This document shows positions 18,982 to 40,300 of a stretch of DNA of 64,000 nucleotides, one piece after another. The stretch comes from Candidatus Gottesmanbacteria bacterium (GTDB lineage: Bacteria; Patescibacteriota; Microgenomatia; UBA10105; UBA927): positions 1,098,053-1,162,052 of the forward strand of contig JAHFKK010000001.1 of assembly GCA_023245335.1 (NCBI GenBank), written 5' to 3'. Every line of letters begins with the position of its first letter. The stretch's first letter is position 1. The translations under genes and the position numbers were made by a program. The notes under the pieces were generated by a model. The model was not told the DNA's origin. It saw only the letters and a list, made by a program, of their open reading frames with translations, and did no database searches.

Positions 18982-19149
18982 CTAAAAAGCGGTATACAAA
19001 AAAGGAACCACCGGCGAACTTTGCGCTAAGACAAGCAACACGGCAACGACAATGAGTGTGACGACAAACGGGATCATCCACCACAAACGATTCTGCCAAA
19101 AGAAGGAAAGCAATTCTTTCACGGTAGAGGCTTGATGGATGACTTTCAT
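18982..19149 (-). CDS. Small membrane protein (~55 aa) translationally coupled to the carbamoyltransferase gene
   Basis: Not in the ORF track (under 60 aa). Manual translation gives MKVIHQASTVKELLSFFWQNRLWWMIPFVVTLIVVAVLLVLAQSSPVVPFLYTAF. Its ATG overlaps the carbamoyltransferase TGA (ATGA). Confidence 0.4.
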   Translation of the reverse strand: MKVIHQASTVKELLSFFWQNRLWWMIPFVVTLIVVAVLLVLAQSSPVVPFLYTAF

Positions 19150-20822
19150 AGCGTTATCTTGTCCTTAATAACATACTTCCCTAACACCAAAACGTCAATG
19201 CCGCTCCTCACAAATGTGCTGTAGGCGTCGGCGGGACTGTTGACGATGGGCTCGCCTTTCAGGTTAAATGAGGTATTGAGAAGTATCGGACGCTTGGTCT
19301 TTTTATAAAAAGCTTCAAGAAGCCTCCGGTATCGGCCGGGATACCCCCTACTCACCGTCTGTATGCGGGAAGTGCCGTCCACATGAACGACAGCTGCGGC
19401 GATGCGTTTGGCCAACCTGCTCGCTTGAAAGGTCCCGAGCATAAACGGTATAAGGTTGGACTCCGTGACGGTAAAATACCGTTTTGTCTGCTCTGCCAGT
19501 ATAACCGGAGCAAACGGCCGGAATTCTTCACGGAATTTGATTTTGGCGTTCACGATGTCTTTCATCTTCGATTCTTTGGGGTCCGCAAGTATCGTTCGGT
19601 GCCCGAGAGCCCGTGGCCCGAATTCTGCCCGTCCTTCAAACCAGCCGACCACACGCCCCGATATCAATGCATCCGTAACTGTCGAATATAACCGTGCATC
19701 CTTCATCGCTATATAGGGAATTTTTTTATCAACGAGAAATTGACGGATTGTCCTGTCGCTGTACTCCTTACCCCAAAATACATCCCGTAACGGCTGACGC
19801 TTCTCAGCACCCAACACATGATGATATGCGTATAACGCCGCCCCCGCTGCGGCACCGTCATCCCCGGCTGCCGGAAAAATAAACAGATGTTTAAAGGGGG
19901 TCCGTTTCGTTACCAAACCGTTGATGACGCTGTTTAAAGCGACTCCGCCACCATAAACAAGGTTAGTCTCCCCTGTCTCCCGGGCAATCACCGACATCAT
20001 GGTAAAAATGATTTCTTCGGTGACCTTTTGGATGCTCGCTGCCAAATCAAAACGATCGCACCCCACAAATTCCTTCAGAAACACGTCCGAACACATCCGT
20101 TCGGCACTTCTATGGAACAGAAAGTAATCAAGATTGAGACGAAGGGATCCATCAGAAAACTGGCGGAACGTTTTTTTGACTTTATTCACATATCTTGGCT
20201 TCCCGTATCCGGCCATTCCCATCACTTTGTATTCCCCGTCGTTTACTTCGAACCCAAGGAATGCGGTAAACGCTGAATAAAGCATGCCGACTGAATGCGG
20301 GAACCGCATTTCATACCTTGGGAAAAGACGATGTCCCCGGGCGGTTCCCCAGCTCCCGGTAGTCCACTCGCCGACAGCATCCAAAGTGAGATATGCGGCG
20401 TGAGAAAACGGACTCGGATAAAAACTCGCCGCGGCATGACTCGTGTGCTGGGGAACAAATAATACTTGTTCCGGCGCTATACCAAGCTCACTCACGATCG
20501 TTGATTTGATCCAGAGCTTCTCCGTAAGGCTGTTGCGCATGGATTCGACAAACCAGGAACGTGACTCAGGCGCGTACCGGAGACTGATGGTCAGATTACG
20601 TTCGAACTTCTGAAACGGTTTTTCATAGAACGCAACGTAGTCAAGCTCATTGGCCCTCATACCTGCTTCTTTCAGGCAATATGCGATAGCCTGTTTCGGG
20701 AACCCTGCGTCATGTTTTTTACGGCTGAACCGTTCTTCAGCGGAAGCGGCAATAAGCCTGCCATCTCGGATGATGACCGCTGCCGATTCGTGATAGTGAC
20801 TGGAAATACCCAGGATAGTCAT
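19146..20822 (-). CDS. Carbamoyltransferase, NodU/CmcH family
   Basis: 558 aa. N-terminal block MTILGISSHYHESAAVIIRDGRLIAASAEERFSRKKHDAGFPKQAIAYCL is highly characteristic of NodU/CmcH O-carbamoyltransferases. Confidence 0.8.
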   Translation of the reverse strand: MTILGISSHYHESAAVIIRDGRLIAASAEERFSRKKHDAGFPKQAIAYCLKEAGMRANELDYVAFYEKPFQKFERNLTISLRYAPESRSWFVESMRNSLTEKLWIKSTIVSELGIAPEQVLFVPQHTSHAAASFYPSPFSHAAYLTLDAVGEWTTGSWGTARGHRLFPRYEMRFPHSVGMLYSAFTAFLGFEVNDGEYKVMGMAGYGKPRYVNKVKKTFRQFSDGSLRLNLDYFLFHRSAERMCSDVFLKEFVGCDRFDLAASIQKVTEEIIFTMMSVIARETGETNLVYGGGVALNSVINGLVTKRTPFKHLFIFPAAGDDGAAAGAALYAYHHVLGAEKRQPLRDVFWGKEYSDRTIRQFLVDKKIPYIAMKDARLYSTVTDALISGRVVGWFEGRAEFGPRALGHRTILADPKESKMKDIVNAKIKFREEFRPFAPVILAEQTKRYFTVTESNLIPFMLGTFQASRLAKRIAAAVVHVDGTSRIQTVSRGYPGRYRRLLEAFYKKTKRPILLNTSFNLKGEPIVNSPADAYSTFVRSGIDVLVLGKYVIKDKITL

Positions 20823-21044: not shown

Positions 21045-21764
21045 TTATTTCTTATCCGCTCCGATTATAATGAGAAAATCCGCTGATGGGGTCGATTCCC
21101 CGGCAGGAAGCGGTGACAGGGTAACTCCCAGGCTCTGCGCCAGTTGCTGAGCAGCCTGCGCCTTATCGCCTTTGACATCAACCAGGAGTGTCGTCGTATA
21201 ATTTTTTCCTTTTGCATTATCCCGATCGGCAACCACGGCATTCGGGGTCTTCCCCTTGAGCTCGACTTCATACTTCTTTGTGAGTCCGACAACCGATGTG
21301 CCGTTCAGAAGAACAAAGGACGGCGTCTGCTGCGCAGCGGTCGTTGTGGGACCGACACTTATAGGACCCACATCAACGATTTTATGTTCGCCGGGCCGAT
21401 AGAGAATTGCTTTTTTGGCTTTGGTATAGATAAGCACACGATCTCCTTTTTTTGCGTTGGCGAAAAACGGATTAGCCTGCAACCGCGAAGCATCCGTCAC
21501 CGTCGCGACCGTCGGAGTCTCACCGGCCGGAAGAACGATAAGTTTACCGACTTCCGTGACGAGTTGCTGTGCATCGGTTTTCGCCGCATCAGCAAGAGAT
21601 GTGGGAGACGACTTGAGACGGTCAAGCTCTTTTTGAATCACGAAAAATCTATAGACACCGAAGCCGGTAAGAAAGACAACCACCACGCCGATAACAATGA
21701 ATACTACCCGTTGGGGCAACCGGAACGAAGAGGTCAAGTGCTCACCAGGACGATCGTCACTCAT
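21045..21764 (-). CDS. Membrane-anchored protein with N-terminal domain paralogous to 18527..18943 and C-terminal LytR_C-like domain
   Basis: Start set at MSDDRPG (21764) to avoid overlap with fcl. TM; shared block VGKLIVLPAGETPTVATV..PFFANAKKGDRVLIY. C-terminal SFVLLNGTSVVGLTKKYEVELKGK...LAQSLG resembles the LytR_C domain. Confidence 0.5.
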   Translation of the reverse strand: MSDDRPGEHLTSSFRLPQRVVFIVIGVVVVFLTGFGVYRFFVIQKELDRLKSSPTSLADAAKTDAQQLVTEVGKLIVLPAGETPTVATVTDASRLQANPFFANAKKGDRVLIYTKAKKAILYRPGEHKIVDVGPISVGPTTTAAQQTPSFVLLNGTSVVGLTKKYEVELKGKTPNAVVADRDNAKGKNYTTTLLVDVKGDKAQAAQQLAQSLGVTLSPLPAGESTPSADFLIIIGADKK

Positions 21765-21816
21765 ATGTACTGGTATATCACGGAACGGGCAATACTGACA
21801 AGCATATATCGCTTTG

Positions 21817-22767
21817 TTACGGATAGGTGGAAAGATACCAGGAAACCGTCCGGTTGAGGCCGGTGCGGAACTTGGTCCCGGCACGGAAACCGAATGCGGT
21901 AGATGCAAGTGAAGAGTCCAACAATCTCTTCGGCTGACCGTCCGGATGGCGACCGTCAAACCGTATGTCGCCCACGAATCCAACCAGCCGCGCAATCTCG
22001 CTGGCAAGCATCCGGATCGACAACTCGCTGCCGCTGCCGATATTTACAGGATCCGGCCTGTCATACTGTTGGGCGGCCAACATGATTGCACGGGCGGCGT
22101 CACCCACATACAGAAACTCCCGCGTCGCGAGCCCAGTTCCCCATAATACGACGGTTTTTGCCCTGCGTTTCTTCGCATCACGCATCTTCCGGATGAGCGA
22201 AGGAATGACATGCGCATACTGCGGGTGATATGAATCTCCGGGCCCGTAGAGATTCACCGGGATGAGATAGATAATCGGAAATCCGTACTGCTGCCGATAT
22301 GCGTGTGCCTGCACCAGGAGAGATTTTTTTGCTACCCCGTATGCGGCATTTGTTTCTTCGGGATACCCGTCCCAAAAATTCCGCTCCGAAAACGGAACCG
22401 GCGTATATTTGGGATAGGAACAAACGGTCCCTATGTGAACGAGTTTCCTGACACCGGCTCGATAGGCCGCCTGAGTTATATACATACCCATAAGGAGGTT
22501 ATCATCAAACAGTGTGGCGGGAAATTTTTCATTCCGTCCGATACCCCCGACTTCACCGGCCGCATGAATGACGATATCCGCTCCTACCACAGCCTTTTTG
22601 CATGCGCTAAGGGTCCGGAGGTCATACTCATCATGCGTCACCCGACGTAACGCACGCGGGCGGAGTTCGGTAAGGAGTGAAACGATGTGGGATCCGAGAA
22701 ATCCCGTTGCACCGGTCACGACGACCCGTTGTTTCCGCCAAAATGCAGGAGAAAATGTGCGTCGCAT
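21817..22767 (-). CDS. fcl: GDP-L-fucose synthase (GDP-4-keto-6-deoxymannose 3,5-epimerase/4-reductase)
   Basis: 316 aa; aligns along its length with E. coli Fcl (VTGATGFLGS, HAAGEVGGI..N...PA.F..DNLLM, CSYPK, YG.AKK, NLYGPGDSYHP...HVIPSLIRK, VLWGTG...REFLYV.D, FDG..PDGQPKRLLD). Confidence 0.85.
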   Translation of the reverse strand: MRRTFSPAFWRKQRVVVTGATGFLGSHIVSLLTELRPRALRRVTHDEYDLRTLSACKKAVVGADIVIHAAGEVGGIGRNEKFPATLFDDNLLMGMYITQAAYRAGVRKLVHIGTVCSYPKYTPVPFSERNFWDGYPEETNAAYGVAKKSLLVQAHAYRQQYGFPIIYLIPVNLYGPGDSYHPQYAHVIPSLIRKMRDAKKRRAKTVVLWGTGLATREFLYVGDAARAIMLAAQQYDRPDPVNIGSGSELSIRMLASEIARLVGFVGDIRFDGRHPDGQPKRLLDSSLASTAFGFRAGTKFRTGLNRTVSWYLSTYP

Positions 22768-22785
22768 AATCCAATGGGTATTGTA

Positions 22786-23553
22786 TCACGACCGGGTCGC
22801 GTCCCTTTTCCTGACACGAAAATCTTTCATCGCATGATATAGGACGACAAGAAGCTTCATGCCGTCGCGAAATCTCGATATTTTGGTGACTCCATAAACA
22901 CGCGCCCGATACACGACGGGTACCTCAACGATAGGCATACCCAGCTTGGCTGCTCCGAGAAGGAGGGTGAAGTCACCATACGGGTCATGGATGCGGAATT
23001 TTTTTGTCGCGTGCCATATGTTCTGATACTGCACGCGGGTCAGGGCCTTTGTTCCGCAAAGAGTATCCGTAATCCGTGAGCCGACCATAAGGGAAAATAT
23101 CCATGAAAACAGAATGTTCCCAGTATGGTTAAGGAGTCGCATCGCACCGGGCTCCTGGGGATAGATGAATCGCGATCCCATAACCAACGCGGACGGTTTT
23201 TTCACCAGTGCCGACACAACATGAACAATGACCGTAGGATCGACGGACATATCCGCGTCATAGATCACAAGCGCCTGTCCGCGTGCGCGCCGCATGCCAT
23301 AAGAAACGGCATCCCATTTTCCCCTGCCGGGTTGTTGCTTGTCATAGATACGCCAGGAACGGTGACGCCCTCCTCCCAATGTACGAATGGCACGACGGAT
23401 GGCTTCTCTGGTGCCGTCCGTAGAATGACCGTCGACAAAGATAAGCTCTCCCCGCAGGGGAATTTTGGAAACGGAGACAACGATACGGGAGACGGTCCCT
23501 GCTTCATCTTTGCAGGGAACTATAACACTCACATCTATAGCTCTCGTTGTCAT
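22786..23553 (-). CDS. Family 2 glycosyltransferase (dolichyl/polyprenyl-phosphate sugar synthase-like)
   Basis: 255 aa. VSVIVPCKDEAGTV, FVDGHSTDGT and YDADMS (DxD) motifs of the GT2/DPM1-like fold. Confidence 0.8.
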   Translation of the reverse strand: MTTRAIDVSVIVPCKDEAGTVSRIVVSVSKIPLRGELIFVDGHSTDGTREAIRRAIRTLGGGRHRSWRIYDKQQPGRGKWDAVSYGMRRARGQALVIYDADMSVDPTVIVHVVSALVKKPSALVMGSRFIYPQEPGAMRLLNHTGNILFSWIFSLMVGSRITDTLCGTKALTRVQYQNIWHATKKFRIHDPYGDFTLLLGAAKLGMPIVEVPVVYRARVYGVTKISRFRDGMKLLVVLYHAMKDFRVRKRDATRS

Positions 23554-23564
23554 TATATTTGTAA

Positions 23565-24581
23565 TTGATTATGATAAGTGAACGCAAACATCAGGCTGCA
23601 GACATGAAACAAACGCTTCTTATTGTACTCGGATTGTCCATAATCGCCAACATTATCGGCTTTACGTATATCAGCCTGAACGCACATCCGCCGGACGGAT
23701 ATCAATCCGGCTCGGCAGATCAATATCCGTTATTATCACCAAGGATATTTGCCGAAAAACAAAACGATATCCTCGTGAACTTCGTCAAACTGAGAGCTGA
23801 CATCGCCGCATATATCTCCGCAACTAATCTCAATACAGACTCGAAAAAATCCCCTTCATTCGGGATGTACTTTGAATATCTGCCATCCGGCATATCAATC
23901 GGCGTAGGAGAAAAAAATTCATATATTGCCGCGAGCCTTCTCAAGGTTCCGATCATCATGGGAGTATATAAGTATATAGCCAGTGGACACATACATGAAG
24001 ACGATGTCCTGACCATCAAAGACGAATTCCTCGACCCGTCATACGGCGATTTATGGAAAAAAGGCGCAGGGAGTACCATATCCGTCGCTGACGCCATCAA
24101 GCTCACGCTCATCAAATCGGATAACACCGCAAAGTCGGTCCTCTATGGTAATACCCCGCCGGAAACGCTCACTGACGTCTATCAGTATTTGGACATACCC
24201 TTTGAGCTGAACGGGAACGTCCCGGTAGTTTCACCCAAAAATTACTCCTCCATTCTCCGAAGCCTTTACCTGTCAAGTTACCTGACCCCTGAATATTCCA
24301 ACAAACTGCTCACATTGCTCACCCAATCTGATTTCAATGATAAATTAAGCGCCGGTATTCCGGATGCAGTAAAAGTCGCTCACAAAATCGGCGTACAGGA
24401 TGTAAACAATCCGAATGGCTCCATCTACACGGATTGCGGTATCGTCTACGTTCCGAAACGCCCGTATATCCTATGTCTCATGATGCGGGATACGGAAACA
24501 AACGCACAGACGCACATGAAATCGATCTCAAAAATAATCTATGACTACGTCACCAAAACAAATACGCCGTCCTCCAACTGA
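23565..24581 (+). CDS. Membrane-anchored class A beta-lactamase-like serine hydrolase fold protein
   Basis: 338 aa. N-terminal TM; AASLLK (S-x-x-K), KSDNTAKSVL (class A SDN box) and HKIG (KTG-like) in the expected order. Catalytic competence unknown. Confidence 0.5.
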   Translation: MIMISERKHQAADMKQTLLIVLGLSIIANIIGFTYISLNAHPPDGYQSGSADQYPLLSPRIFAEKQNDILVNFVKLRADIAAYISATNLNTDSKKSPSFGMYFEYLPSGISIGVGEKNSYIAASLLKVPIIMGVYKYIASGHIHEDDVLTIKDEFLDPSYGDLWKKGAGSTISVADAIKLTLIKSDNTAKSVLYGNTPPETLTDVYQYLDIPFELNGNVPVVSPKNYSSILRSLYLSSYLTPEYSNKLLTLLTQSDFNDKLSAGIPDAVKVAHKIGVQDVNNPNGSIYTDCGIVYVPKRPYILCLMMRDTETNAQTHMKSISKIIYDYVTKTNTPSSN

Positions 24582-26556
24582 TGTCCGGCTGTGGATCACC
24601 TGCGCCTTTGGTCTGTTGACCCTTCTTCTGTGCGCACGATATCTCCTGGGAAACACCATGTCACCGGACTCGTGGCTCCATATCGGAACGGGGCGATTTA
24701 TTCTGGAACACAAATATTTGCCGCATCATGGAGATATTTCGTACAAAATCACCGCGCCAATTTTTGAATGGGTTCCCGCAAGCTGGTTATCCGACGTCAT
24801 GCTCTACGTAAGCAGCGCAAAATTAACTGTCGGCGGGCCGCTCATCAGCATAACCATACTGCTCTTCACATTATGGCTCCTGTATATCGTGGGCGGGTTT
24901 CTGACCATTCCGAACGTGCTGAGGGTTGTATCTATCACGATCGCGGCAATCCTGACCCTGTCGTTTTGGAGACTGCACCCACTACTTTTTCTGGTACCGC
25001 TCACCGTCCTTCTGGAACTCGTATTCATCCGCTGGACACAAACCAAAATACACCGGCTCCTCTGGATTCTTCCTCTTATTACAGTCCTCTGGGCAAATAT
25101 AGGCGGAGGATTTTTATTTATTCCCCTGGGTATCATCATCGCGTATATAGCACACTATCTGTTGACTGAAAAATATAGTAAAAAGGAACGGATCGGTATC
25201 ATCACGCCCGCCGTTACAGGCGCGCTCGTGACCCTCATAAATCCAAGCGGTATACGGGTCTGGATCTACAACGTCACCGTCATCGGACTGTTAGACTCAC
25301 GAAAATGGTATTCGACCCTCACGGGAGCGCTTGAGGCCACCAATACGAGCATCATCAAAAACGCTCCTTCTACTATTCCGTTTGTTTTGGCCCTCGCGTA
25401 CCTCCTGGTGACGGTGTTCGCACTCGGATACGTTCTCGTATCGGACTGGAGAATTTCGTACCCGAAGGTACGTCCCGTCCTTCCTTTGGCCGTACTCCTT
25501 ATCCTACCCTTTCTCTGGATACGGTTTATTCCTATTGGACTCATACCGACATTGCCGCTTTTTATCGTGGTACTATCATTGCTTCTCCGTCGATTGAACG
25601 GCCCGGGGACTCGCTTCGCCGGGCTATTCGGCGTATCGACCGGCCTTCTCATACTCCTTGGCCTCCTATCTCTGCCCGCAGAACCTTCACAGTCTCCGCC
25701 GGTCCACCAGCTCGATATGATCGAGGCCTTTCAACTCCCCCGGACCGTACTTGTGAGCACTGATTTAGTCGGGTACTCCTACTACCGTCTCTATCCGGAT
25801 AAAGGTTTTATAGACGCACAGGACGACATGTTTGATGATAACGACACCCTCGCCATTTACTCGCAGTTTTCAACCGTTTCCGACACACAGGCAAAGCAAC
25901 TCCTCGCTGCGTATCCGAACATAAACGCCGTGATGCTATCGAAAGAAAATGATTACCTGACCGGATATTTCGACAAACAGCCGGACTGGGCGCTCGTCTA
26001 CCTGGACTACAACGGCCTGCTATTTGTGAGAAAATCTTTTGTTTCCGAATCGTTCCTCCGGGATCACGAATTGAGCGCTCTCGATCTCACGACCGACTTG
26101 GGTACTGACCCAAAACATATTCCCGATGCCATCATCCAACTTGAAAAATTCACAAAAACCTACCCCGACAGTACGCTTGCTATCGGTCAACTGGCGAGTC
26201 TCTATAGGGTCAGCGGCAGGCTTGATCAGGCGATCGGAACTATCAAACGTATTCCACAGGCCAAGTGGGATTTCGTCGTCAAGACGGAAATGGGCCGGAT
26301 TCTCGCGGCAAAAGGCGATTGCGCTGATGCGGAACGATTCTTCCTGGATGCTTTGGGCGATCGGAATGAGAAAAATGTCTCAAAAACCACACTGGATCTG
26401 GCGATACTCTATGCTGTGTGCCTCAAAGATAATGCAAAAGCACAACATTATTTCAAACGATATACTTCCTACCCTATCCCGCAGACGGAACGGGACCGCG
26501 CAACAGAGATCATGAAGCGGTATGTCATCAACCTGGAGCTTGATACCCCACCATGA
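24541..26556 (+). CDS. Large polytopic membrane protein (about 13 TM) with C-terminal TPR-like region
   Basis: 671 aa. Many hydrophobic helices through about residue 390; C-terminal soluble region with TPR-like helices. No DD/DE loop-1 motif seen. Confidence 0.45.
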   Translation: MTTSPKQIRRPPTDVRLWITCAFGLLTLLLCARYLLGNTMSPDSWLHIGTGRFILEHKYLPHHGDISYKITAPIFEWVPASWLSDVMLYVSSAKLTVGGPLISITILLFTLWLLYIVGGFLTIPNVLRVVSITIAAILTLSFWRLHPLLFLVPLTVLLELVFIRWTQTKIHRLLWILPLITVLWANIGGGFLFIPLGIIIAYIAHYLLTEKYSKKERIGIITPAVTGALVTLINPSGIRVWIYNVTVIGLLDSRKWYSTLTGALEATNTSIIKNAPSTIPFVLALAYLLVTVFALGYVLVSDWRISYPKVRPVLPLAVLLILPFLWIRFIPIGLIPTLPLFIVVLSLLLRRLNGPGTRFAGLFGVSTGLLILLGLLSLPAEPSQSPPVHQLDMIEAFQLPRTVLVSTDLVGYSYYRLYPDKGFIDAQDDMFDDNDTLAIYSQFSTVSDTQAKQLLAAYPNINAVMLSKENDYLTGYFDKQPDWALVYLDYNGLLFVRKSFVSESFLRDHELSALDLTTDLGTDPKHIPDAIIQLEKFTKTYPDSTLAIGQLASLYRVSGRLDQAIGTIKRIPQAKWDFVVKTEMGRILAAKGDCADAERFFLDALGDRNEKNVSKTTLDLAILYAVCLKDNAKAQHYFKRYTSYPIPQTERDRATEIMKRYVINLELDTPP

Positions 26557-28220
26557 ACAAAATTATTATCAGTGACCTAGCACCCTGGGTCGTCACCGCG
26601 GCGCTATGTATTGTCATGGGGTATCTCGTCACCTGCATACCGGCCTGTATACGCTCATGGACGAGACCTGGACGTCGCACGGCGCTATTCTTCTTATTGG
26701 TCTCAGTTTCCATAGCGGCGTTTGTACGATTTGCCTGGGTCCCGAATACGCGCCGGATTTATTTTGATGAAGACCGGTATCTCATGTATGCAGTATCATT
26801 TGCCAGAACGGGACAGGAGCTGGGAATACGGCTGGCAACACCGACCAAGGTCTTGCTCGGAGATCCGGACCCGGGAGCGCGCGTCACGGTGCCCACTCTC
26901 CATGCATGGATTATGCGTTTGTTCGGATATAATGACACGCCACTTTTTACCGCCGCCAAAGTAGCCAGCACCATACAGATCCTTCTTCTGTTTGCATTGT
27001 CGTTTCTCTTGTTTGGATCGCCCGTAGGGGCTATAGTCGCCGCCTGCATCTACGCGCTGCTACCGATCACTGCTTATTGGTCTGTAACGACCAATCTCGA
27101 CTCTTACTTCGTGTTTTTCGGCATGCTCGCGGCAATTGCAGCCCTCTGGTATGTGAAACGTCCATCGCTCGCCCGCAGCATATTCCTATGTGCCACGATA
27201 ACGCTATTATTATTTGTACGTATCGAGGGATTGGCATTCATACCGATCCTCGTCATAGCGATCGTCCTGCGCAGAAGGGAAATCCGAGCGCCACTCCTTC
27301 AACGGTCAGATATTTTCGCTATCGCATTTACTGCACTTTTATTAGGAATGCGGCTTTTTATTGCCCTTCCCTTATTTTCACAAACCTGGTGTTGCGCTGA
27401 AGCCACCCCTCTCGAGATATTCCAGATCGGATATGTTGCCCGGAATATCATTCCGAACATCCAAACCTTCGTGATGCAACCGGAATTTCCGGCTATACTC
27501 TCACTTCTTGCGTTCGTCACGCTGTTTCTGCCGTACGAGTGGACCAAAAAACGGCTGCCCTCGCTATCTGGATCGGCCCGCTGGATGCTTGTTTTGTGGA
27601 TTCTTTTTTACTTTGTCATCTACTCCTGTTATTACGCAGGACAATTTTATTCGTTTACGTTTTCGGGCTCCTATGGACGGTTTTTCCTCGTGCTCGTGCC
27701 TCCCATCGTACTTCTTGCCGCCTTCGGCCTGACACGCATAGGGAACGTATTTGTTACGGCAAACAATAAATCCAAAATACGGATGCTCGGTGTGGCGCTT
27801 ATCGTCGGTTTGACGCTCTATCCGACCATAATAAATTATCAAACTATGATCCGAATATCCCCGTGGGACGCGCTTGTTGATATGGGGCCGCGTATTTCCC
27901 GTACGCAGCTTACGCAAAATATCCTGCCGAACATTCCAAGATCCGCTATCCTCATCCATCCGTTAACCGCAGCGCCACTCATGGACGGACGGACCATTGT
28001 TGCCTACGAGGCTTTCCTGTCATCGCCACAGGCGCAATCCTATGTGAAACAAAAACTTAAAGAAGGTGTCCAGGTATATATCCTGCATACGAATACGTGC
28101 GATTCAACCCCGTACAAATGCGCGGGCCTTCGTGGGACGTTCACTTTCGTCCCTACTCCTCTTGGACAAGATACGACACAAACCATTGTCGGAATTGACC
28201 AAGTCAAGCTTGTCCATTAG
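26553..28220 (+). CDS. GT-C fold membrane glycosyltransferase, PMT/ArnT (GT39/GT83)-like
   Basis: 555 aa. Polytopic; YFDEDRYLMYAVSF after TM1 resembles the conserved loop-1 FDE motif of protein O-mannosyltransferases/ArnT. Start overlaps the upstream gene by 4 nt. Confidence 0.5.
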   Translation: MNKIIISDLAPWVVTAALCIVMGYLVTCIPACIRSWTRPGRRTALFFLLVSVSIAAFVRFAWVPNTRRIYFDEDRYLMYAVSFARTGQELGIRLATPTKVLLGDPDPGARVTVPTLHAWIMRLFGYNDTPLFTAAKVASTIQILLLFALSFLLFGSPVGAIVAACIYALLPITAYWSVTTNLDSYFVFFGMLAAIAALWYVKRPSLARSIFLCATITLLLFVRIEGLAFIPILVIAIVLRRREIRAPLLQRSDIFAIAFTALLLGMRLFIALPLFSQTWCCAEATPLEIFQIGYVARNIIPNIQTFVMQPEFPAILSLLAFVTLFLPYEWTKKRLPSLSGSARWMLVLWILFYFVIYSCYYAGQFYSFTFSGSYGRFFLVLVPPIVLLAAFGLTRIGNVFVTANNKSKIRMLGVALIVGLTLYPTIINYQTMIRISPWDALVDMGPRISRTQLTQNILPNIPRSAILIHPLTAAPLMDGRTIVAYEAFLSSPQAQSYVKQKLKEGVQVYILHTNTCDSTPYKCAGLRGTFTFVPTPLGQDTTQTIVGIDQVKLVH

Positions 28221-28226
28221 ACCCAT

Positions 28227-29987
28227 ATGTCATTTGCTCAATATCTCTTCAAACGTATCAATCAAAAATCCGTAGGGATGCTGATCGTCCTTTTGGTCGT
28301 CACGCTTTCGTATGTAAATACGTTTTCCAACGCATTCGTCTGGGATGACTTTGATACCATAGTCAACTGGCAGGCCACCCGGACGTGGGCAAGTATCCCT
28401 ACGATGCTTGCCGGCGCCACGCCACCGGGGCATCCCGGTAATTACCGGCCCGTACGCAATGTACTCTATGTCGTCTCCTATATGCTCTGGGGACAAAATC
28501 CCTGGGGCTATCATCTGCAGGCAATCATACTCGCCGTGCTTATGGCGCTTCTGGTGTATGTCATAACCGAAAAACTGGTTAAACGACCCTTTGCACCGCT
28601 TATCACGGCGCTTCTTTTCGGCGTGCATCCCATGCACGTCGAGGCATTCACCTGGATCACATCCAGTATGGACATGTTCGGCATCGTATTTGGCTTCGGC
28701 GCAGTCGCTGCATTCCTGTCCTGGCGCGACCGGCCAAGCCACTGGGGATGGTATGTCCTGACCTGGGTCCTGACGCTGTTGGCGGCTTTTTCTAACGAAA
28801 TCGCCCTTACCGTGCCCATGCTACTTACGGCCATTATTTTACTCATTCCCCGATACCGCGTCCGCCGGCCTGTTGTCACGATGACGCCTCTCTACATACC
28901 GCTTATCGTCAATGTATTTGTACGGGCAGCCCTTCTTCATATCGGTGCCCGCTACATCTATATAGGCAACAGCTTCTGGAAAACCATGCTCATCATGGGG
29001 AAAGCGCTGGTGCTATATCTGCGGCTTCTGGTATTTCCTGTGGGGCTCACTATCGACCATAGTCTGGGCGGCGGACTGACTTCGTGGGCCGTAGAACTCA
29101 CGAATCCGGGCTCCCGAGGCGAACACGCCGTCACGCTGCTTTCCGTATCGGACCCCATGGTTCTTCTCGCCTTAGCGACCTTACTCACCATCATCATCAT
29201 GTTTTTCGTATACCGGAAACGCAACCCCATTATATCGCTCGGTATCGCCTGGTTTGGGATCGGCATGCTTCCGGTATCGAACCTCATACCGACGGAAGCC
29301 ATGATGACCGAACGGTATGCATTGTTCGCTTCGTTTGGATTTTGTCTCATCGTGGGATACGTTTTGACCAAAACGGCAATTCTTACCAAAATACAGATGC
29401 GCTCGTCGCAATTACTGTGGGTGACGTTCATCCTGATCATCGGAAGCTTCAGCATACTCACCATCATGCGTAATGAGGACTGGGCGAACAATAAGACGCT
29501 TTTTGCATCCGCCGTTGCCCGTAATCCGGACGCCTACGTCTCGCGTCTCCAATTGGCAACCGTATATATAGGAGAAGGAAATATGCAGGCTGCATTGGAT
29601 CAATATCTCATTGTGAGTAAAATTATTCCTCAAGAACCGCAAGTAGATATATATATCGCTACGATGTACTCCGTAATGCAGAAATATCCGGAATCAGTCA
29701 TTTATTTCAACCGTGCACTCAAAAAGGATCCCTGGGACATCGAATCTTACTACCGATTGGGTAATATGATGAAGACACTGAAACGATACGACGAGGCGAT
29801 CGACGTCTACACCACGGGAATCAAATTAGCACCCAATCATATTGCCATGATCAATAACCTCGGAGTCGTCTACAGCATAGAGGGCAAATATGCACAAGCC
29901 CACGAGCTCTTTGAACGCGCCCTCACCATAAATCCGTCCTACGAAAGCGCCCGAGAGAATCTTCTGCATCTTAAAGAACGCAACTAG
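28227..29987 (+). CDS. TMTC-like GT-C membrane glycosyltransferase with C-terminal TPR repeats
   Basis: 586 aa. Loop-1 FVWDDFDTIVNW (DD motif), about 11 TM, then clear TPR repeats (AYVSRLQLATVYIGEGNMQAALDQY ... YRLGNMMKTLKRYDEAIDVYTTGIKLAPNHIAMINNLGVVY). Confidence 0.55.
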   Translation: MSFAQYLFKRINQKSVGMLIVLLVVTLSYVNTFSNAFVWDDFDTIVNWQATRTWASIPTMLAGATPPGHPGNYRPVRNVLYVVSYMLWGQNPWGYHLQAIILAVLMALLVYVITEKLVKRPFAPLITALLFGVHPMHVEAFTWITSSMDMFGIVFGFGAVAAFLSWRDRPSHWGWYVLTWVLTLLAAFSNEIALTVPMLLTAIILLIPRYRVRRPVVTMTPLYIPLIVNVFVRAALLHIGARYIYIGNSFWKTMLIMGKALVLYLRLLVFPVGLTIDHSLGGGLTSWAVELTNPGSRGEHAVTLLSVSDPMVLLALATLLTIIIMFFVYRKRNPIISLGIAWFGIGMLPVSNLIPTEAMMTERYALFASFGFCLIVGYVLTKTAILTKIQMRSSQLLWVTFILIIGSFSILTIMRNEDWANNKTLFASAVARNPDAYVSRLQLATVYIGEGNMQAALDQYLIVSKIIPQEPQVDIYIATMYSVMQKYPESVIYFNRALKKDPWDIESYYRLGNMMKTLKRYDEAIDVYTTGIKLAPNHIAMINNLGVVYSIEGKYAQAHELFERALTINPSYESARENLLHLKERN

Positions 29988-30039
29988 CGCGTAAAGTGTC
30001 TTGTATTCTGTCTCCTCATGCTGCATAATTTCACCCATC

Positions 30040-31332
30040 ATGAAATTCCCCGCTCACCCTATCACGCGTTGCAGAATATGCCACCATACGGGACTCCGGG
30101 AGATCCTCAGCCTGGGTAATCAGACGGTGTCAACATTTGTCGCTCCCGGCGAAACAGCTCCCGTTGCGCCGCTTACTCTCCTTCTGTGCGACCCCTCAAC
30201 CAGCGGCTGTGGACTCGTACAGCTCAAACACACCTCCCCGGCAAACTCGCTCTACCGGCACTACTGGTACAAATCCGGGGTAAACGCATCAATGAAGTCT
30301 GCTCTCCGGGATGTCGCGCAGTCCGCAGTCAAACGGCATCCGCTCCAAACCGGCGAAATTGTTCTGGATATCGGCGCGAACGACGGAACATTGCTCCGGG
30401 AATTCCGACGGAGAGACCTACGGAAAATAGCAGTGGAGCCAGCAATAAATCTTACGGGTGAACTTTCGCGTCACGCCGACACCGTCATCAACGATTTTTA
30501 TACCCACCGGGCATTTATCAAAGCTTCCAAAGGAAAAAAAGCCGCGATCATTACGACTGTAGCTATGTTTTATGACCTGGAAGACCCGAATTCTTTCGTT
30601 TCTGACCTACGTAAATCTATCGCTCGAAACGGACTTTGGGTTAATCAGATGGCTTCGCTATATGACATGGTCAAATACACAATGTTTGATAATGTATGTC
30701 ACGAACACATTGAATATTATTCGCTTGCGGCTCTAGAAAGACTACTTGCACGACACAAATTCATGGTCGTCGATCTAGAAATAAATGATGTCAACGGCGG
30801 CAGCATGCGCGTCTACGCAACGCCGGCGGCGTACGCGCACACCTATGTCACCCCCCAATCGACAATCCGTTTACGTCACTATAGAGCTTTGGAAAAAACA
30901 ATGCGCCTGGAAGACCCGCAAACCTATAGACAGTTCTCCCGCCGCGTGACCCGGTACAAACACCTCCTTCATACATTCATCGCGAAAGCCAAAACAAAAG
31001 GAAAAACCGTATGGGGGTATGGCGCATCTACGAAAGGAAACACGCTCCTGCAGTATTTTCAATTCAATGACCGCATACTCGCCGCTATTGCGGAACGCAA
31101 TCCTCTTAAATGGGGACGTGTTACCGCCGGCACCCGCATCCCCATCGTTTCGGAATCAGCCATGCGCAAAGCCAAACCGACGTATCTTCTCATCCTACCC
31201 TGGCATTTCCGCCCGGAATTTATACGACGGGAACAAGCATATCTACGAGGCGGCGGTACGATGATCTTCCCGCTTCCCCGGCTGTCACTCGTCACTATGA
31301 AACACGGGAAACTTCATACGACGTATCTCTAA
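30040..31332 (+). CDS. SAM-dependent sugar C-methyltransferase family protein (Zn-ribbon + MTase + C-methyltransferase C-terminal domain)
   Basis: N-terminal Cys4 (CRIC...CDPSTSGC), SAM motif I (VLDIGANDGTLL) and a C-terminal YGASTKGNTLLQYF block typical of NDP-hexose C-methyltransferases (TylC3-like). ATG 30040 preferred over track TTG 30001. Confidence 0.65.
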   Translation: MKFPAHPITRCRICHHTGLREILSLGNQTVSTFVAPGETAPVAPLTLLLCDPSTSGCGLVQLKHTSPANSLYRHYWYKSGVNASMKSALRDVAQSAVKRHPLQTGEIVLDIGANDGTLLREFRRRDLRKIAVEPAINLTGELSRHADTVINDFYTHRAFIKASKGKKAAIITTVAMFYDLEDPNSFVSDLRKSIARNGLWVNQMASLYDMVKYTMFDNVCHEHIEYYSLAALERLLARHKFMVVDLEINDVNGGSMRVYATPAAYAHTYVTPQSTIRLRHYRALEKTMRLEDPQTYRQFSRRVTRYKHLLHTFIAKAKTKGKTVWGYGASTKGNTLLQYFQFNDRILAAIAERNPLKWGRVTAGTRIPIVSESAMRKAKPTYLLILPWHFRPEFIRREQAYLRGGGTMIFPLPRLSLVTMKHGKLHTTYL

Positions 31333-31344: not shown

Positions 31345-34300
31345 TTATGGCGTCGGACTCGGGGCTGAAGTCGGCGCCGGGCTTGGTGATATGGTCGGCG
31401 CAGGAGAAAGTGTCGGTGTATCTGTTGGCGCAGGAGTTATCGTATCAGTGATGACGGGAGTGGGCGTCACGGTGGGTTGTATCGAACCCGTCGGTACCGG
31501 TGACACTTGCACGCTACCGCCTAGAGGAATACTTGTCGGAGCTGGGACAGACGGGTTGACGGTCGGAGACGGGGTCGGCGCAACCGTCGACGAACCCGCA
31601 ACCGTGCCCGTCGCCTCCTCCTGACCGGAAGTGAATGTCTTCGCGCTGTCAACGGCAATAGCCGTCCAGGAGAACGTGAGGTCTACCGGTGTATCTTTAT
31701 CCAAAAGAATCATGAATCCCTGGGTCGATTGCCCCGTAACCGCCACGTGGACGTTACTCGTAAATACCGTGTTGACGACCGTCTGATGACATTCATCCAG
31801 CGTCGCATCGGGCGCACAAATACCGTCAGTCATATATTGATGATATTTGTCCGTGGAAAGCGCCGGTATGACGATGGTTGCGTTCACAATCGGCGTCTGG
31901 TCATACGCGGACTGGAACGTAATATCCACAAAGCGCTTTCCCTTTTCGATGACCGCATATCCTGCAGCATCCTGGTTGAATTTCACATTTCCGCGGAAGC
32001 TTACTTTGCCGGAATAAATGACGTCTTTCAAATATTCCACCACATCATGGAACCGTACATGCGCCAGAAATTCTACCTGACCTTTAAAGAGTGCTTGTCC
32101 CAGGGAGACCAGCATCTTATCGACGGTGATCCCCTGTCCGAAGTCAGCCAGTTTATCCAGAATTGATTGCTGTACTTGGGCCGTTTCCGTTGCCTGTCCC
32201 GCGAGAAGTCCTGAGTCTGTCGCGATGGTGAGTTCGCTCAACGCATCCGCGGTATGAGCGATCGTGACTTCGCGCGGTTGTTCCAAAAGTGCCGTATCCT
32301 GTTGGTCCCCGAGATAATAGCCGATATTCACGTTCACGAGGAGTTTCGTTTCATCCGCGGGGGCTGCCGGATCATATGCTTCGGCTGCAGTTCCCAATAT
32401 TTTCCCCGGCTTCGTCGCCTTCATCGCAACCCCGGCAACACCGGAAGATGTGATGGGATCACCGATTTTGATCGCTCCGCCGGTACCGTTTACGCGCGTC
32501 TCTACCCGTCCGCTCAATGCGACGGGCCAGGTCATCGAACTCGATGCGCCGATCGTGAGTCCGGGATCAGCAGAGGCGACGCCCAGGAGCTTACGGTCAT
32601 ACGGGATCGCTGACAGCGTCGCTTCGCCGGTCGTATCGGAAATTGCAAGCACTTGCCCGTCGGGTATATCCGCATCTGTGTTTACATAATAATGTTCTGC
32701 GACATCAGCACCCGCGATGGGATCGGGCCGAAGTGATGCAGCCGGCGTCTCTTGGGAACCTCCCTGCTGTACGAGCGGTGAAGCGCCGTTCTGAATCGGA
32801 TCATCCTGAACGAACGCAAACAAATCTACGTTTGCCGTCCACGGGAAACCGTTTGAAACGGCACCGCCCGCGGCACCTACCTGCGCTTGCCCGACGTTTA
32901 TGGCCGGCCCTAAGTTAAATGTAGGAATGGCATTGGCGTTGGTGGCATTACCACAATAGGTCATGCTGATGCCGTCGGACATATTGTTGTCGACAAAAAA
33001 CCGGATATCATTGGTTGCCCTCGCTTCTATCCTTAGAAGGGCAAACGCGTTAGTTTTGATATTTTGGCCGGCACATTGGACCACCTGGTTATTGGATGCC
33101 GTGCCCATACGGACGTTTCCTGCCCATTGCTGACCCAATCCCGTCGCATTGGCGGAATCACCGTTAAAGAACATAATGGCGCCGGAATTTGGCTGCGTCC
33201 AGGGAATCGTATACTGCCATCCCTGGGAATAATTGTTCGCACCGAAGTACATATTTTTGATGGAGGACATTGCGGTAAATCCGGGTGACGGCATGACTTT
33301 CCAGTACATCACCCATTTATTCGCGATATTGAGTATGGCCGCCGTTGCTGCCCCGGTACCACTACCCATATGTAACCGACACTCGCCGCCTTTGTAACCT
33401 GTATCGGTGAGACTCGTACCATTAGAGCTTGTTTGGGTATCCGGTGAAAGTTCCAAAAGCCCCATACTGCCATTCGTTAAAGCTGATCTTGCCTCGTTTC
33501 CAGTGCAGCCGATAGAACCGGAACTCAAACTTCCGAGTGTGAGCGTCCCGCCTTCATCAAATACCCAGCCATACTGATCACCGAACCTGCCGGTAGCGGT
33601 CTGATCTGCTGTTGCTTGCGCTACGTTTCTATTGAAATTGTCCATATAGAAACTTCCGTCGATGTTGATAAATCCGCCTGATTCCGTCACCCCGTATCCT
33701 TCTCCGGTGAAGTATTCTTTGAGTGACGCGAGTGTCGTGCCTGACGCACTTTGATAACTGAGTGCGCTGCCGTCGGCGAGTTGTATGACGGGTGCGGTAT
33801 TCGTGAATTGGATATCTCTGTCGTAACCTGTGCCAATTTTCAGCGCGACCTCTGTCGCGTTTGCCTGCCCGGTAACATTTCCTATGGATATTGCTTCCAG
33901 TGTTCGGCCCGCAGTATTGTCATTTGAAGTGAGGTTTACACGAAGTCCTGCGTTATCAACGGTAGAACTGCCGCCGTTTGCAAAATCTATCTGTAAACCG
34001 TCTACGCCTGCTGTCGCTGCACCCTGACTGGTACCGGTATTGAGGATATTCATCATATCCACAGTGGGTGCAGTAGAGGTTGCCATCGTAACCTGGAATT
34101 GTGTCCCGGTCGTATCCTGAAAAATGATACTGCCATTGGTTCCTGTCATAAGCACGGTTTGATCACCCGCAGATCCCGTCGTGTAGGCTTGTTGCAACGT
34201 CCCGCCCCCACCGCCGCCTGTTCCCGTAGCCCCGGTGGGACCGATAGGACCGGTAGTTCCCTGAAGTCCCGTCGGGCCGGTTGTACCTGTCGGGCCGGTC

Positions 34301-37300: not shown

Positions 37301-40300
37301 CCTGTGGGGCCTGCATTTCCTGTTGTCCCCGTAGAACCAGTCGGACCGGCGTTTCCCGTTGATCCCGTACTTCCGGTTGGACCGGAAGAACCTTGAGTTC
37401 CCGTTGACCCAGTACTACCCGTCGGACCACTTGACCCTTGGGCGCCCGTCGCTCCGGTTGATCCTGTAGAACCTGTGGGGCCTGCATTTCCTGTAGCTCC
37501 TGTTGATCCCGTTGGCCCATTATTTCCGGTAGCTCCGGTTGATCCGCTGGGACCATTTACCCCAGCTCCACCGGCTGTTCCGGTAGCTCCGGTTGATCCC
37601 GTTGGGCCAGACGAACCTTGCGTTCCTGTTGCACCCGTTGATCCCGTAGAACCTGTCGGGCCATTGTTTCCTGTTGACCCGGTGGAACCGGTCGGGCCAT
37701 TGTTTCCGGTTGCGCCCGTTACACCTGTTGGGCCACCTGCACCTTGTGTCCCTGTTACACCTGTGGAACCGGTGGGACCGGAAGATCCCTGTGTCCCTGT
37801 TGCACCGGTACTTCCGGTTGTACCGGTGGGACCATTGTTTCCCGTTACACCAGTAGACCCCGTGGGTCCATTGTTTCCTGTAGAACCTGTGGAACCAGTT
37901 GCTCCGTTTGCTCCGGCATTCCCGGCTGTTCCTGTCGCACCAGTTGATCCCGTTGGGCCAGACGAACCTTGCGTTCCTGTTGCACCCGTGGAACCGGTAC
38001 TTCCGGTGGGACCAACGTTTCCTGTTGTTCCAGTTGAACCAGTCGGACCATTGTTTCCAGTTGATCCCGTACTTCCGGTTGGACCGGAAGATCCTTGCGT
38101 CCCTGTTGCTCCTGTGGAACCGGTGGGACCCGATGAACCTTGCGTTCCTGTTGCACCCGTTGATCCCGTAGAACCTGTGGGGCCTGCATTTCCTGTTGTC
38201 CCTGTTGAGCCGGTAGGACCATTGTTGCCGGTTACTCCTGTGCTTCCCGTCGGACCATTGGATCCTTGTGTTCCCGTTGACCCGGTACTACCCGTCGGAC
38301 CACTTGACCCTTGGGCGCCCGTTGCACCTGTGGGACCAGCATTTCCTGTTGTTCCAGTTGAGCCGGTCGGACCATTGTTGCCAGTTGCGCCAGTACTTCC
38401 GGTTGGACCGGAAGATCCTTGCGTCCCTGTTGCTCCTGTGGAACCGGTGGGACCCGATGAACCTTGCGTTCCTGTTGCACCCGTGGAACCGGTTGGACCG
38501 ACGTTACCGGTTATTCCTGTTGATCCTGTCGGACCGTTATTACCTGTCGTTCCTGTAGATCCTGTCGGACCGGAAAAACCTTGAGCTCCTGTTGCTCCAG
38601 TTGATCCCGTTGATCCGGTCGGACCATTGTTTCCTGTTGAACCAGAACTTCCTGTAGGACCGGCATTACCGGTAGTACCTGTTGAACCCGTGGGGCCGGA
38701 TCCACCACCAGCACCTGTCGCGCCAGTTGAACCAGTAGGACCAGAAGATCCTTGGGTACCCGTTGCTCCTGTGGAACCAGTTGTTCCGGTCGGACCAGCG
38801 TTTCCGGTAGCTCCGGTAGAACCGGTCGGACCAGCGTTTCCAGTTGTTCCAGTTGAGCCTGTTGCTCCATTGGCTCCATTTGCGCCGGCAGTCCCGGCAG
38901 TTCCCGTAGCGCCGGTGGAACCGGTGGGACCAGATGAACCTTGAATTCCTGTTGATCCCGTACTTCCTGTCGGACCGTTTGTACCGGTAGTTCCAGTAGA
39001 ACCGGTCGGTCCTGCATTTCCGCTCGGGCCTGTTGCTCCCGTCGGGCCGGCTGCACCGGCTGCACCACCCTGTGATCCGGTCGGTCCTGTTGCCCCAGTA
39101 GGACCACCTTCGCCGGTAACCCCTGTTGATCCAGTACTTCCAGTCGCGCCCGTGGAACCACTCGTCCCTACTCCACCGGTTGCACCGGTGGAACCGGTCG
39201 GACCGCTTACTCCTTGAATACCTGTTGCTCCTGTAGAACCGGTTGGACCGGCATTGCCGGTAGATCCCGTACTACCAGTTGGACCTGAGGAACCTGCAGA
39301 TCCAGTTGCGCCACTTGACCCAGTCGGACCATTATTTCCTGTAGATCCGGTAGAACCGGTCGGACCCGCATTCCCTGTAGGCCCTGTCGATCCGGTTGGT
39401 CCATTCCCACCATTTGCACCTGTTGCACCTGTACTACCAGTTGGACCTGAGGAACCTGCAGATCCAGTTGCGCCACTTGACCCAGTCGGACCGGCGATAC
39501 CTGTTATACCTGTGGCTCCGGTAGGACCACTCGTCCCTATTCCACCGGTTGCACCGGTAGAACCGGTCGGACCGCCGATTCCGGTGGCGCCCGTAACACC
39601 GGTTGATCCTGTAGGTCCAACTATACCTGTCGCTCCTGTTGAACCGGTAGGTCCGTTTGACCCGCCTCCGCCACCCCCGCTACCGGTACCGGTAGCTCCG
39701 GTGGGACCTATGGGACCGAGTTCTCCGGTAGATCCCGCTGTCCCGACACCAGTTGCCCCGGTTGCCCCGTCTACACCAATAGTGCCGTTCGTTCCGTTCG
39801 TCCCATTAGAGCCATTTGCTCCCGCATCTCCTTTCTCTCCCTGGGGGCCACTGACTCCTGTAGCTCCTGTTGCGCCAGTTTCCCCAATACCTCCGAATGT
39901 GCCGCCGGAATAAAGCGTAGCGCTGCCGGTTTGCAATCCTGTGTTGTTCTGCTGTTGAGTCGTATTGAAGTTGTTGACTGTGGTAAATTGCGGGCTAAGT
40001 TGTTGTGTCGCGGTGGGTGAAGAAGTAACTGATGTAGAACCTATCCTAATGATACCTTGTGCATCAAAACGTTGCACGGTCAATCCAATTGTTGGCAAGT
40101 TTGGTGCCAATATCTGAGGTGATGATCCAAAAGAACCCGCATCTGTCGAAACTCCTAATACGCTCGTGTCGTTATTCGATACGACAACCATCTTGAGTGT
40201 TTCACGGCTTATGAGTGTTGAGACGGCATCCAGAGATTGTAAGGTCGGCTGAATAGAAAGCGACAGCATGGCGTTATTGGCACTTCTATCTCCCGTAATG

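Follow-up and report, generated by a model that had tools for sequence, protein, structure and literature searches.

A locus from a Candidatus Gottesmanbacteria bacterium (contig JAHFKK010000001.1) pairs a gene for a giant fibre protein with an operon that encodes polytopic membrane glycosyltransferases. The locus lies in a 64-kb stretch of DNA, called the window below, and positions are given in window coordinates. Because this pairing recurs in 15 related genomes, the gene set most likely decorates the fibre with sugars outside the cell. Specifically, the reading that we favour, with moderate confidence, is that the locus encodes a fibre-dedicated extracytoplasmic protein O-glycosylation system that uses lipid-linked sugar donors, in a Microgenomates-type bacterium of the Candidate Phyla Radiation (CPR). 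The gene linkage is solid, and gene identities, folds and conserved acidic residues of the catalytic loops are likewise shown; the biochemistry is inferred.

The operon comprises five genes on the + strand that are separated by no more than 52 nt or overlap. These encode a membrane-anchored protein with the fold of class-A beta-lactamases and penicillin-binding proteins (PBPs) (hereafter bla-like; 23604..24581, with the ORF listed from 23565), three polytopic membrane proteins named M1 (24541..26556), M2 (26553..28220) and M3 (28227..29987), and, from the last gene, a homolog of NDP-sugar 3-C-methyltransferases (CMT; 30040..31332). We treat the set as one operon because the reading frames of bla-like and M1 overlap by 41 nt and those of M1 and M2 by 4 nt. 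The fibre gene (31345..40905, - strand) is convergent with this operon, and 12 nt separate the stop codons of CMT and fibre. The GT2, Fcl-like and LytR_C-domain genes described below form a divergent unit on the - strand, with a carbamoyltransferase gene further on. All open reading frames of the initial annotation were found at the coordinates given there, but its placement of these genes directly upstream of the fibre operon had the wrong orientation, as operon and fibre gene stand tail to tail. The likely true starts are 23604 for bla-like, 21767 for the LytR_C-domain gene and 40905 for the fibre gene; orthologs of the bla-like protein align from Met14, which corresponds to 23604.

Relatives of the locus (with names beginning in L) were sought by searches run from M3 orthologs, from the C-terminal module of the fibre (species-representative genomes), from M1 (metagenomes) and again from the fibre C-terminal module (word-indexed, 8 proteins). 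The relatives are uncultured small-genome bacteria, one of them a Candidatus Gottesmanbacteria, and one paralog cluster lies in Candidatus Daviesbacteria. The records for L008, L009 and L011-L017 are titled ‘uncultured Gammaproteobacteria/Pseudomonadales bacterium’, and these titles look wrong, as gene content and relatives indicate CPR/Microgenomates.

The fibre module and M2 are adjacent in 15 loci without exception, and five additional loci are uninformative because their contigs end too early. In every one of the 15, M2 adjoins the 3′ end of the fibre gene or is separated from it only by accessory genes, and the convergent arrangement of fibre gene and operon is kept with a gap of only tens of bases. 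Beyond M2, M1 and then bla-like follow wherever the contig reaches, and the linkage holds at 32-64% protein identity. When the search starts from M3 orthologs, the order GT2 / bla-M1-M2-M3(-CMT) recurs at 40-50% identity, and in all four distinct loci with sequence beyond the operon a fibre gene comes next, whose C-terminal module is 43-64% identical over 600-1,090 residues. Starting from that module instead, all seven loci that extend past the 3′ end (L008, L009, L010, L012, L014, L015 and L016) show convergent M2-M1, and two contigs end too early. The metagenome search from M1 yielded four loci with bla-M1-M2, with the fibre module in the three that reach far enough, and L018 and L019 add two more fibre-M2 loci. 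The flanks vary from locus to locus (redoxin/Cache genes, DUF2207, LytR_C/rpe and others), so the linkage is not just frozen synteny.

The core of the system consists of bla-like, M1 and M2, present in every locus that reaches them. The remaining genes come and go. GT2 is frequent without being universal, and occurs in about half of the loci (the window, L001-L003, L005, L007 and L015/16). Six loci carry M3, and three of these have a second paralog. The Fcl-like gene is found in five loci only (the window, L001, L002 and L015/16), and CMT in four fibre loci (the window, L002, L005 and L007) plus the L004 cluster. Among fibre loci, the carbamoyltransferase gene occurs only in the window. Locus L018 shares with the window both its operon-side flanks (LytR_C, the 23S-IVP protein, rpe, deoC and DUF359) and the HTH/Cache gene that precedes the fibre gene. 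Its fibre is of the collagen type, yet the locus has bla-M1-M2 only. Thus, Fcl-like, CMT, M3 and the carbamoyltransferase are lineage-specific, dispensable accessories. The initial annotation had not set the bla-M1-M2 core apart, and the deoxyhexose and C-methyl genes on which it drew (Fcl-like and CMT) are, like M3, missing from many loci, L018 included. Other extras are a methyltransferase-GT2 fusion together with a second GT2 (L005) and an additional PMT_2 gene (L007). In L021 (13816-15246), M2 and the fibre gene are separated by a B12-binding/radical-SAM-type gene (CxxxCxxC).

The fibre protein, the presumed acceptor, has about 3,186 aa by translation from the Met at 40905. It begins with an N-terminal transmembrane (TM) anchor and a Thr/Pro linker, which are followed by approximately 1,890 aa of collagen-like GXY repeats, a C-terminal module of about 900 aa and a tail of about 110 aa. 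The collagen part holds 631 GXY triplets, in which Thr fills 65% of the Y positions (about 410 Thr residues) and Ser 33% of the X positions, and the tail is 57% Pro, Ser and Thr. No sortase signal was found at the C-terminus. Searches of the non-collagen N- and C-terminal regions against Pfam and PHROGs gave no family, and the collagen part matches phage tail-fibre PHROGs. By eye, the last globular segment of about 150 residues before the tail (within 31345-32300; GFMILLDK...FSWTAIAV) has a pattern that vaguely recalls H-type-like lectins, and it has no Pfam match at E<=0.1.

Comparison of the fibres shows which of these parts the enzymes accompany. The C-terminal module is 36-64% identical across the 15 loci. 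Seven loci (the window, L002/L017, L007, L010, L018, L021 and L023) have a collagen-like stalk, and in six others (L003, L005, L012, L014, L015 and L016) the stalk is a non-collagen repeat rich in Ser, Thr and Gly. The expected co-occurrence with collagen-like fibre genes is therefore borne out for the fibre gene in 15 of 15 informative loci but not for its collagen, and the conserved partner is the C-terminal module of about 900 residues with its Pro/Thr-rich tail rather than the GXY stalk. This also changes the initial proposal of a C-methylated deoxyhexose glycan on the Thr-rich collagen stalk and the Pro/Thr tail: the stalk may be modified where collagen exists, but conservation points elsewhere. 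The tail and the Y-position Thr residues are plausible acceptor sites.

All three polytopic proteins are glycosyltransferases of the GT-C fold, M1 by fold, M2 by Pfam, and M3 by fold, TMTC-type motifs and TPR domain. Previously, only two of them had been assigned to the PMT/TMTC type, both with FDE/DD motifs and TPR domains. This description fits M3, which has WDD and TPRs; M2 has the motif (YFDEDRY) but no TPR, and M1, which had been left out, is also a GT-C protein, with one conserved Asp (DSWxH) and a degenerate TPR tail. When the membrane proteins were tested as Wzy or O-antigen ligase proteins versus GT-C enzymes, they came out as PMT/TMTC-type or other GT-C proteins, in keeping with the initial assignment. 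No YfhO match in Pfam was found on any of the three.

M1 (671 aa) has approximately 11 TM helices, which are followed by an alpha/beta domain in the periplasm (about residues 390-510) and by the degenerate TPR tail. Its polytopic TM core can be superimposed on solved GT-C enzymes. The top structural matches are the protein-modifying enzymes Pmt4, STT3B, AglB and PglB, of which the last three match over 420-465 residues, reaching past the TM core; ArnT, AftA and AftB are also among the matches. The status of M1 as a GT-C enzyme rests on fold rather than sequence, because hhalign of M1 against M3 gave a probability of only 36%. A word-indexed homolog search with M1 gave 15 relatives. The TM domain of M1 and of 7-9 relatives matched nothing in Pfam or NCBIfam, the M1 sequence matched no GT-C chain among PDB sequences (only marginal TPR matches, E >=0.06), and a broad M1-family profile had no match in the PDB. 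This broad family is very large, with 29,137 clusters at 50% identity (E<=1e-3), and 5,345 at E<=1e-30. Its members are mostly about 500 aa long, some carry canonical TPRs, and those sampled had no Pfam, NCBIfam or PDB-sequence match. The loop-1 motif DS(W/Y)xH is invariant in 15 M1 orthologs, and its Asp43 is also invariant in a 46-sequence sample of the broad family, whose conserved motifs are DxDxxxH, HEWL, HWLxRPH, WVNLHGGF and a periplasmic WGGYLxY..VFIDGRxDxYG.

M2 (555 aa) is a PMT_2-type GT-C glycosyltransferase, which scores 28.2 bits against a cutoff of 26.1 on Pfam PMT_2 (PF13231), and its orthologs in L003 and L005 are annotated PMT_2 as well. It has a C-terminal periplasmic domain without TPRs, and the loop-1 motif (Y/F)DEDRYL is invariant in 14 orthologs. 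Neither the PMT core (PF02366) nor a MIR domain was found in M2 with Pfam at E<=0.01, so it is not GT39 proper, and a single-sequence search with M2 against the PDB returned nothing useful. Family profiles of M2 and M3 align with 95% probability in hhalign. For M1 and M2, the positively charged N-termini and loops place the loop-1 motifs outside the membrane by the positive-inside rule, and the invariant acidic residues of these catalytic loops argue for real transferase activity.

M3 (586 aa) is a TMTC-like GT-C glycosyltransferase in which the TM domain is followed by C-terminal TPR repeats that are strongly matched. Seven motifs, M1-M7, have been described for TMTC proteins: DD, SHKSYRP, RxD, KE(T/Q)xxT, DW, PxxP and ERxxY (PMC7801869). 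The M3 family keeps D40-D41, Y73-R-P75, H134-P135, E139 and an ERY motif (362-364), of which DD, YRP and ERY correspond to the TMTC motifs DD, (SHKS)YRP and ERxxY, and DW and PxxP have no clear counterpart in M3. TMTC_DUF1736 was not matched by M3 in Pfam (E<=0.01), and it is absent from the 25 families most often matched by 40 members of the M3 family. Against PDB sequences M3 gave TPR matches only, and TPR proteins likewise saturated a Foldseek search with its model against the PDB, which was uninformative on the TM domain. Enzymes of the M3 type are not exclusive to fibre loci, because the Daviesbacteria cluster L004 contains at least seven TPR-GT-C (M3-like) paralogs together with a C-methyltransferase, GT2s, methyltransferases and a carbamoyltransferase, and has no fibre gene within 10 kb.

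The bla-like protein, initially described as a membrane protein of the beta-lactamase fold, does carry a Beta-lactamase2 domain (PF13354, 5.8e-33) and one N-terminal TM helix. It scores 64.5 bits on the NCBIfam class A model, below the cutoff of 200. The motifs SxxK, SDN and KxG are kept in 10 of 10 orthologs, and the position of Glu166 is not conserved (judged against a TEM-1 reference); as a motif profile, this suggests an acyl-transfer or PBP-like role. The gene is present in every locus that reaches far enough and is duplicated in L015/L016, and its linkage to the fibre is as strict as that of the GT-C enzymes.

The soluble 255-aa GT2 protein (22786..23553, - strand; PF00535, 3.2e-19), initially described as DPM1-like, appears closest to dolichyl-phosphate (Dol-P) and polyprenyl-phosphate hexose synthases. 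Its NCBIfam scores are 99 bits for AglJ (cutoff 325), 35 for Dol-P-hexose transferase and 25 for PpgS, all below the cutoffs, and its best PDB match is the Pyrococcus Dol-P-Man synthase 5MLZ (1.8e-4). It has no TM segment. Judged by these similarities, GT2 is a candidate polyprenyl-phosphate-sugar synthase that could feed GT-C donors.

The protein originally called GDP-L-fucose synthase (21817..22767, - strand; Pfam Epimerase, 1.2e-52) is a short-chain dehydrogenase/reductase (SDR) of the Fcl/GMER type, that is, of the GDP-4-keto-6-deoxyhexose epimerase/reductase type. Solved GDP-fucose synthases match it from end to end (7LL6, 2.5e-60; E. coli 1BSV, 3.4e-52), but its 266.5 bits on the NCBIfam GDP-L-fucose synthase model miss the equivalog cutoff of 500; it is named Fcl-like here. 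The protein retains the equivalents of Cys109, Tyr136 and Lys140 and has G/R at the His179 position (relative to an E. coli reference). The suggestion that it is not a true 3,5-epimerase, drawn from the His179 replacement, is weakened because the best solved homolog, 7LL6, has Asn there. The name of a TylC3-like sugar C-methyltransferase stands for CMT, a homolog of the TylC3/TcaB9/MtmC type, given its three domains (Methyltransf_13, PF08421; Methyltransf_23, PF13489; Methyltransf_14, PF08484), which provide a Zn-ribbon N-domain, a SAM domain and a C-methyltransferase C-domain, the four Cys residues in the N-domain, and full-length matches to D-mycarose 3-C-methyltransferase 4RV9 (3.5e-50) and TcaB9 (1e-36). 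The NodU/CmcH-type carbamoyltransferase (19146..20822, - strand; Carbam_trans_N/C, 6e-70 and 1.9e-63) is a possible glycan-tailoring accessory. It is inserted in the window relative to the syntenic L002, where it is absent at the same position, and it has a homolog in the Daviesbacteria cluster (L004, 3038-4795).

Established donors of membrane GT-C enzymes are lipid-phosphate-linked sugars. By analogy with the actinobacterial Ppm1/Pmt and the streptococcal Pgf and GtrB/PgtC2 systems, we infer the donor type, the acceptor, the sugar and the topology of a pathway in which GT2 would charge polyprenyl phosphate with a sugar taken from a nucleotide sugar, on the inner side of the membrane, and a putative flippase would turn the lipid-linked sugar across the membrane. 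M2 and M1, which are always present and translationally coupled, would then transfer the sugar to Ser/Thr residues of the exported fibre, with M3 taking part in transfer in some lineages. The likeliest acceptor would be the Pro/Thr-rich C-terminal tail together with other Ser/Thr-rich parts, including the Y-position Thr of the collagen stalk where present. Fcl-like, CMT and the carbamoyltransferase might tailor the nucleotide sugar in a lineage-specific manner to a 6-deoxy, C-methylated and/or carbamoylated form, which would need a 4,6-dehydratase. For the bla-like protein, processing or wall attachment would be possible.

In actinobacteria, Ppm1, a GT2 polyprenyl-phosphate-sugar synthase, and Pmt (GT39), a GT-C enzyme of the PMT superfamily, target Pro/Thr-rich regions of exported proteins. 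The Gottesmanbacteria locus likewise has a GT2 and a PMT-superfamily GT-C that would act on such regions, but M2 matches only PMT_2, not the GT39 PMT model or MIR, and three distinct GT-C proteins are linked to one presumed substrate. A further precedent is given by the streptococcal Pgf and GtrB/PgtC2 systems, in which a GT-A polyprenyl-phosphate-sugar synthase and GT-C proteins encoded beside adhesin genes glycosylate Ser/Thr-rich regions outside the cell (PMC12041528). In Pgf (PgfS-PgfM1-PgfE-PgfM2) and GtrB/PgtC2, as here, a GT2-type enzyme, one or two polytopic GT-C proteins and a sugar epimerase are encoded beside the substrate gene (PMC12041528, PMC5856776). However, the streptococcal GT-C proteins have YfhO domains, whereas those described here are PMT_2-type, TMTC-like with TPRs, and from a family without a model. 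The present locus also differs in its strictly linked PBP-fold protein, its C-methyltransferase and carbamoyltransferase, and the single giant fibre as its presumed substrate.

Precedent for TPR-bearing GT-C enzymes comes from eukaryotes. The TMTC proteins are protein-specific O-mannosyltransferases of this kind (PMC7801869), as, reportedly, is TMEM260 (PMC10214176). Like TMTC1-4 (GT105) and TMEM260, M3 combines a GT-C domain of about 11 TM helices with an extracytoplasmic C-terminal TPR domain, and has the DD, YRP and ERxxY motifs. Unlike TMTC proteins it has no DUF1736, it has Asn in place of the Lys of KE(T/Q)xxT, it is bacterial (which would make polyprenyl-phosphate-sugar the donor), and it is dispensable in many loci. 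M1 also ends in a TPR-like domain, and in such enzymes the TPRs are presumed to select a specific protein substrate.

The initial annotation drew its analogy instead from BclA of Bacillus, to which soluble enzymes add sugars within the mother cell. As substrates the two are comparable, both being collagen-like, GXT-rich surface fibres, but the machinery differs: membrane GT-C proteins and a candidate lipid-sugar synthase are found here, and the window showed no genes for the biosynthesis of rhamnose or of anthrose-type sugars. Moreover, the conserved link is to the C-terminal module, and about half of the loci are without collagen. The collagen region of BclA is densely O-glycosylated with deoxyhexose chains capped by unusual sugars such as anthrose or cereose (PMC10050317). 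A search of the literature on collagen-like fibres or their glycosylation in CPR/Patescibacteria found nothing relevant.

It is important to note that several observations weigh against a fibre-dedicated glycosylation system. The 64-kb window, to which the search within the 1.2-Mb genome was confined, contains no gene for GDP-mannose 4,6-dehydratase (gmd), another 4,6-dehydratase or a second SDR, and none for a GtrA-like flippase. Fucose, like any other sugar, is a hypothetical constituent of the glycan. GT2 is not adjacent in L010 or L018, and thus donor supply is not always encoded in the locus. The Pro/Thr/Ser-rich tail is present in most complete C-termini, but L012 is without it, and the fibre homolog in L019 (18-2735, protein P0240) ends in Peptidase_M23 instead, which hints that the distal end of the fibre can carry cell-wall-degrading activity. 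At the KE(T/Q)xxT position of TMTC, M3 reads NEIALT, with Asn for Lys. Finally, glycosylation offers no explanation for what the strictly conserved bla-like protein does.

Other explanations deserve consideration. The GT-C proteins might modify an envelope glycopolymer or lipid, such as a secondary wall polymer or lipoglycan, so that the fibre is anchored on it or passes through it without being the acceptor, and the linkage reflects a shared envelope-assembly pathway. The presence of arabinosyltransferases (AftA and AftB) and ArnT among the structural matches would fit this view, as would the wall-associated folds (LytR_C-domain and PBP-fold proteins) that travel with the locus and the cluster of four GT4 genes, a GT5 gene and a WecG/TagA gene located 3 kb past the fibre gene. 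However, nothing links this cluster to the module, and only its GT5 gene could be checked in a relative (L017), where it is conserved. The top structural matches of M1 modify proteins, the TPR-bearing GT-C enzymes of known function act on proteins (PMC7801869), and the linkage involves specifically the 3′ end of the fibre gene and is kept when the flanks change. On balance, we consider an envelope polymer an unlikely acceptor. A different alternative takes M1 to work like an oligosaccharyltransferase that moves an oligosaccharide en bloc from polyprenyl diphosphate to the fibre, with the glycan built by cytoplasmic glycosyltransferases such as those of the GT4/WecG cluster, and with M2 and M3 adding single sugars. 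The matches of STT3B, AglB and PglB beyond the TM core, the alpha/beta domain that follows the TM region of M1, and the occurrence of the GT4/WecG cluster within the window would be consistent with this arrangement. So would the WGGYLxY...VFIDGR motif of the M1 family, which by eye is reminiscent of WWDYG. We nevertheless consider en bloc transfer very unlikely.

The bla-like protein lies at the heart of a further alternative, in which bla-M1-M2 is primarily a machine for fibre assembly or anchoring. The PBP-fold enzyme would cross-link the fibre to peptidoglycan or process it, for instance by trimming the tail, and the GT-C proteins would serve as a membrane scaffold or supply one priming sugar required for attachment. 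Conservation of the bla-like gene is as strict as that of M1 and M2, the gene is translationally coupled to M1, its motifs without the deacylating Glu166 are those expected of a transferase or PBP rather than a beta-lactamase, and the fibre ends without a sortase signal. Against this, both GT-C proteins keep their invariant acidic residues in the catalytic loops, the argument from Glu166 depends on an alignment to the TEM-1 reference, and we know of no precedent for class-A beta-lactamase-fold proteins that anchor surface proteins. We judge such a machine decidedly unlikely. We give almost no credence to a last alternative, that adjacency is gene order inherited within one narrow clade without functional coupling. 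All loci do come from one group of related uncultured genomes, and the window, L002 and L018 also share flanking genes. However, the genes remain linked where protein identity is down to 32-45% and where flanks and accessory genes have changed, the convergent gap of tens of bases is kept in 15 of 15 loci, and the stalk is swapped between collagen and other repeats with its neighbours unchanged.

Very little is known of the surface structures of CPR bacteria, which live attached to other cells and of which most have not been cultured. If the fibre is indeed the acceptor, its strict pairing with glycosylation enzymes marks it as a central surface organelle that is heavily modified. Through this pairing, three GT-C proteins gain a candidate protein substrate, and one of the three belongs to a very large unannotated family. 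The pairing also extends a principle so far demonstrated in streptococci, that of a lipid-sugar synthase and GT-C enzymes encoded beside an adhesin gene, to TMTC/PMT-type enzymes and a far removed lineage. The collagen stalk can be exchanged, and the enzymes are probably not tied to it. A bolder proposal, which we regard as speculative and unlikely to be right as a whole, is that the long form of M1 is the first member of its large GT-C family with a nameable substrate, that M1, M2 and the PBP-fold protein form a three-part machine that both glycosylates the fibre and fixes it covalently to the wall without a sortase, and that the fibre tip has variable ends (collagen stalk, beta-rich stalk or M23) for host contact by these episymbionts.

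The genes around the fibre and the operon are in part conserved as well. Directly upstream of the fibre gene, a candidate regulator with HTH_17, a TM segment and dCache is encoded (40929..42890, - strand), with orthologs upstream of the fibre in L017 (2259-4178; 39% identity) and L018 (1948-3846; 35%). In L021 (15256-20700), the collagen fibre protein itself carries, fused to its N-terminus, a TM helix and two HTH_17-like segments. On the other side, the gene for a TM-anchored LytR_C-domain protein (21045..21767, - strand; PF13399, 5.2e-05) lies downstream of the Fcl-like gene, and its orthologs stand beside the module in L001, L002, L005, L018 and L021. An ORF at 18527-18943 (138 aa) encodes a paralog of the N-terminal half of this protein (37% identity), and the same pair is also found in L002, L018 and L021. 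The locus is further flanked by an oxidative pentose-phosphate block (13719-18398; rpe, a 6-phosphogluconolactonase-like gene, a gnd-like gene and zwf) with a gene for a 23S-rRNA-intervening-sequence (IVP) protein, of which rpe and the IVP gene have syntenic counterparts in L002 and L018. Beyond the fibre gene, the cluster at 44125-54886 comprises one GT5-like gene, which stands first, four GT4 genes, an endonuclease/exonuclease/phosphatase-family gene and a WecG/TagA-family transferase gene, and it may represent a pathway for a wall polymer or a lipid-linked oligosaccharide.

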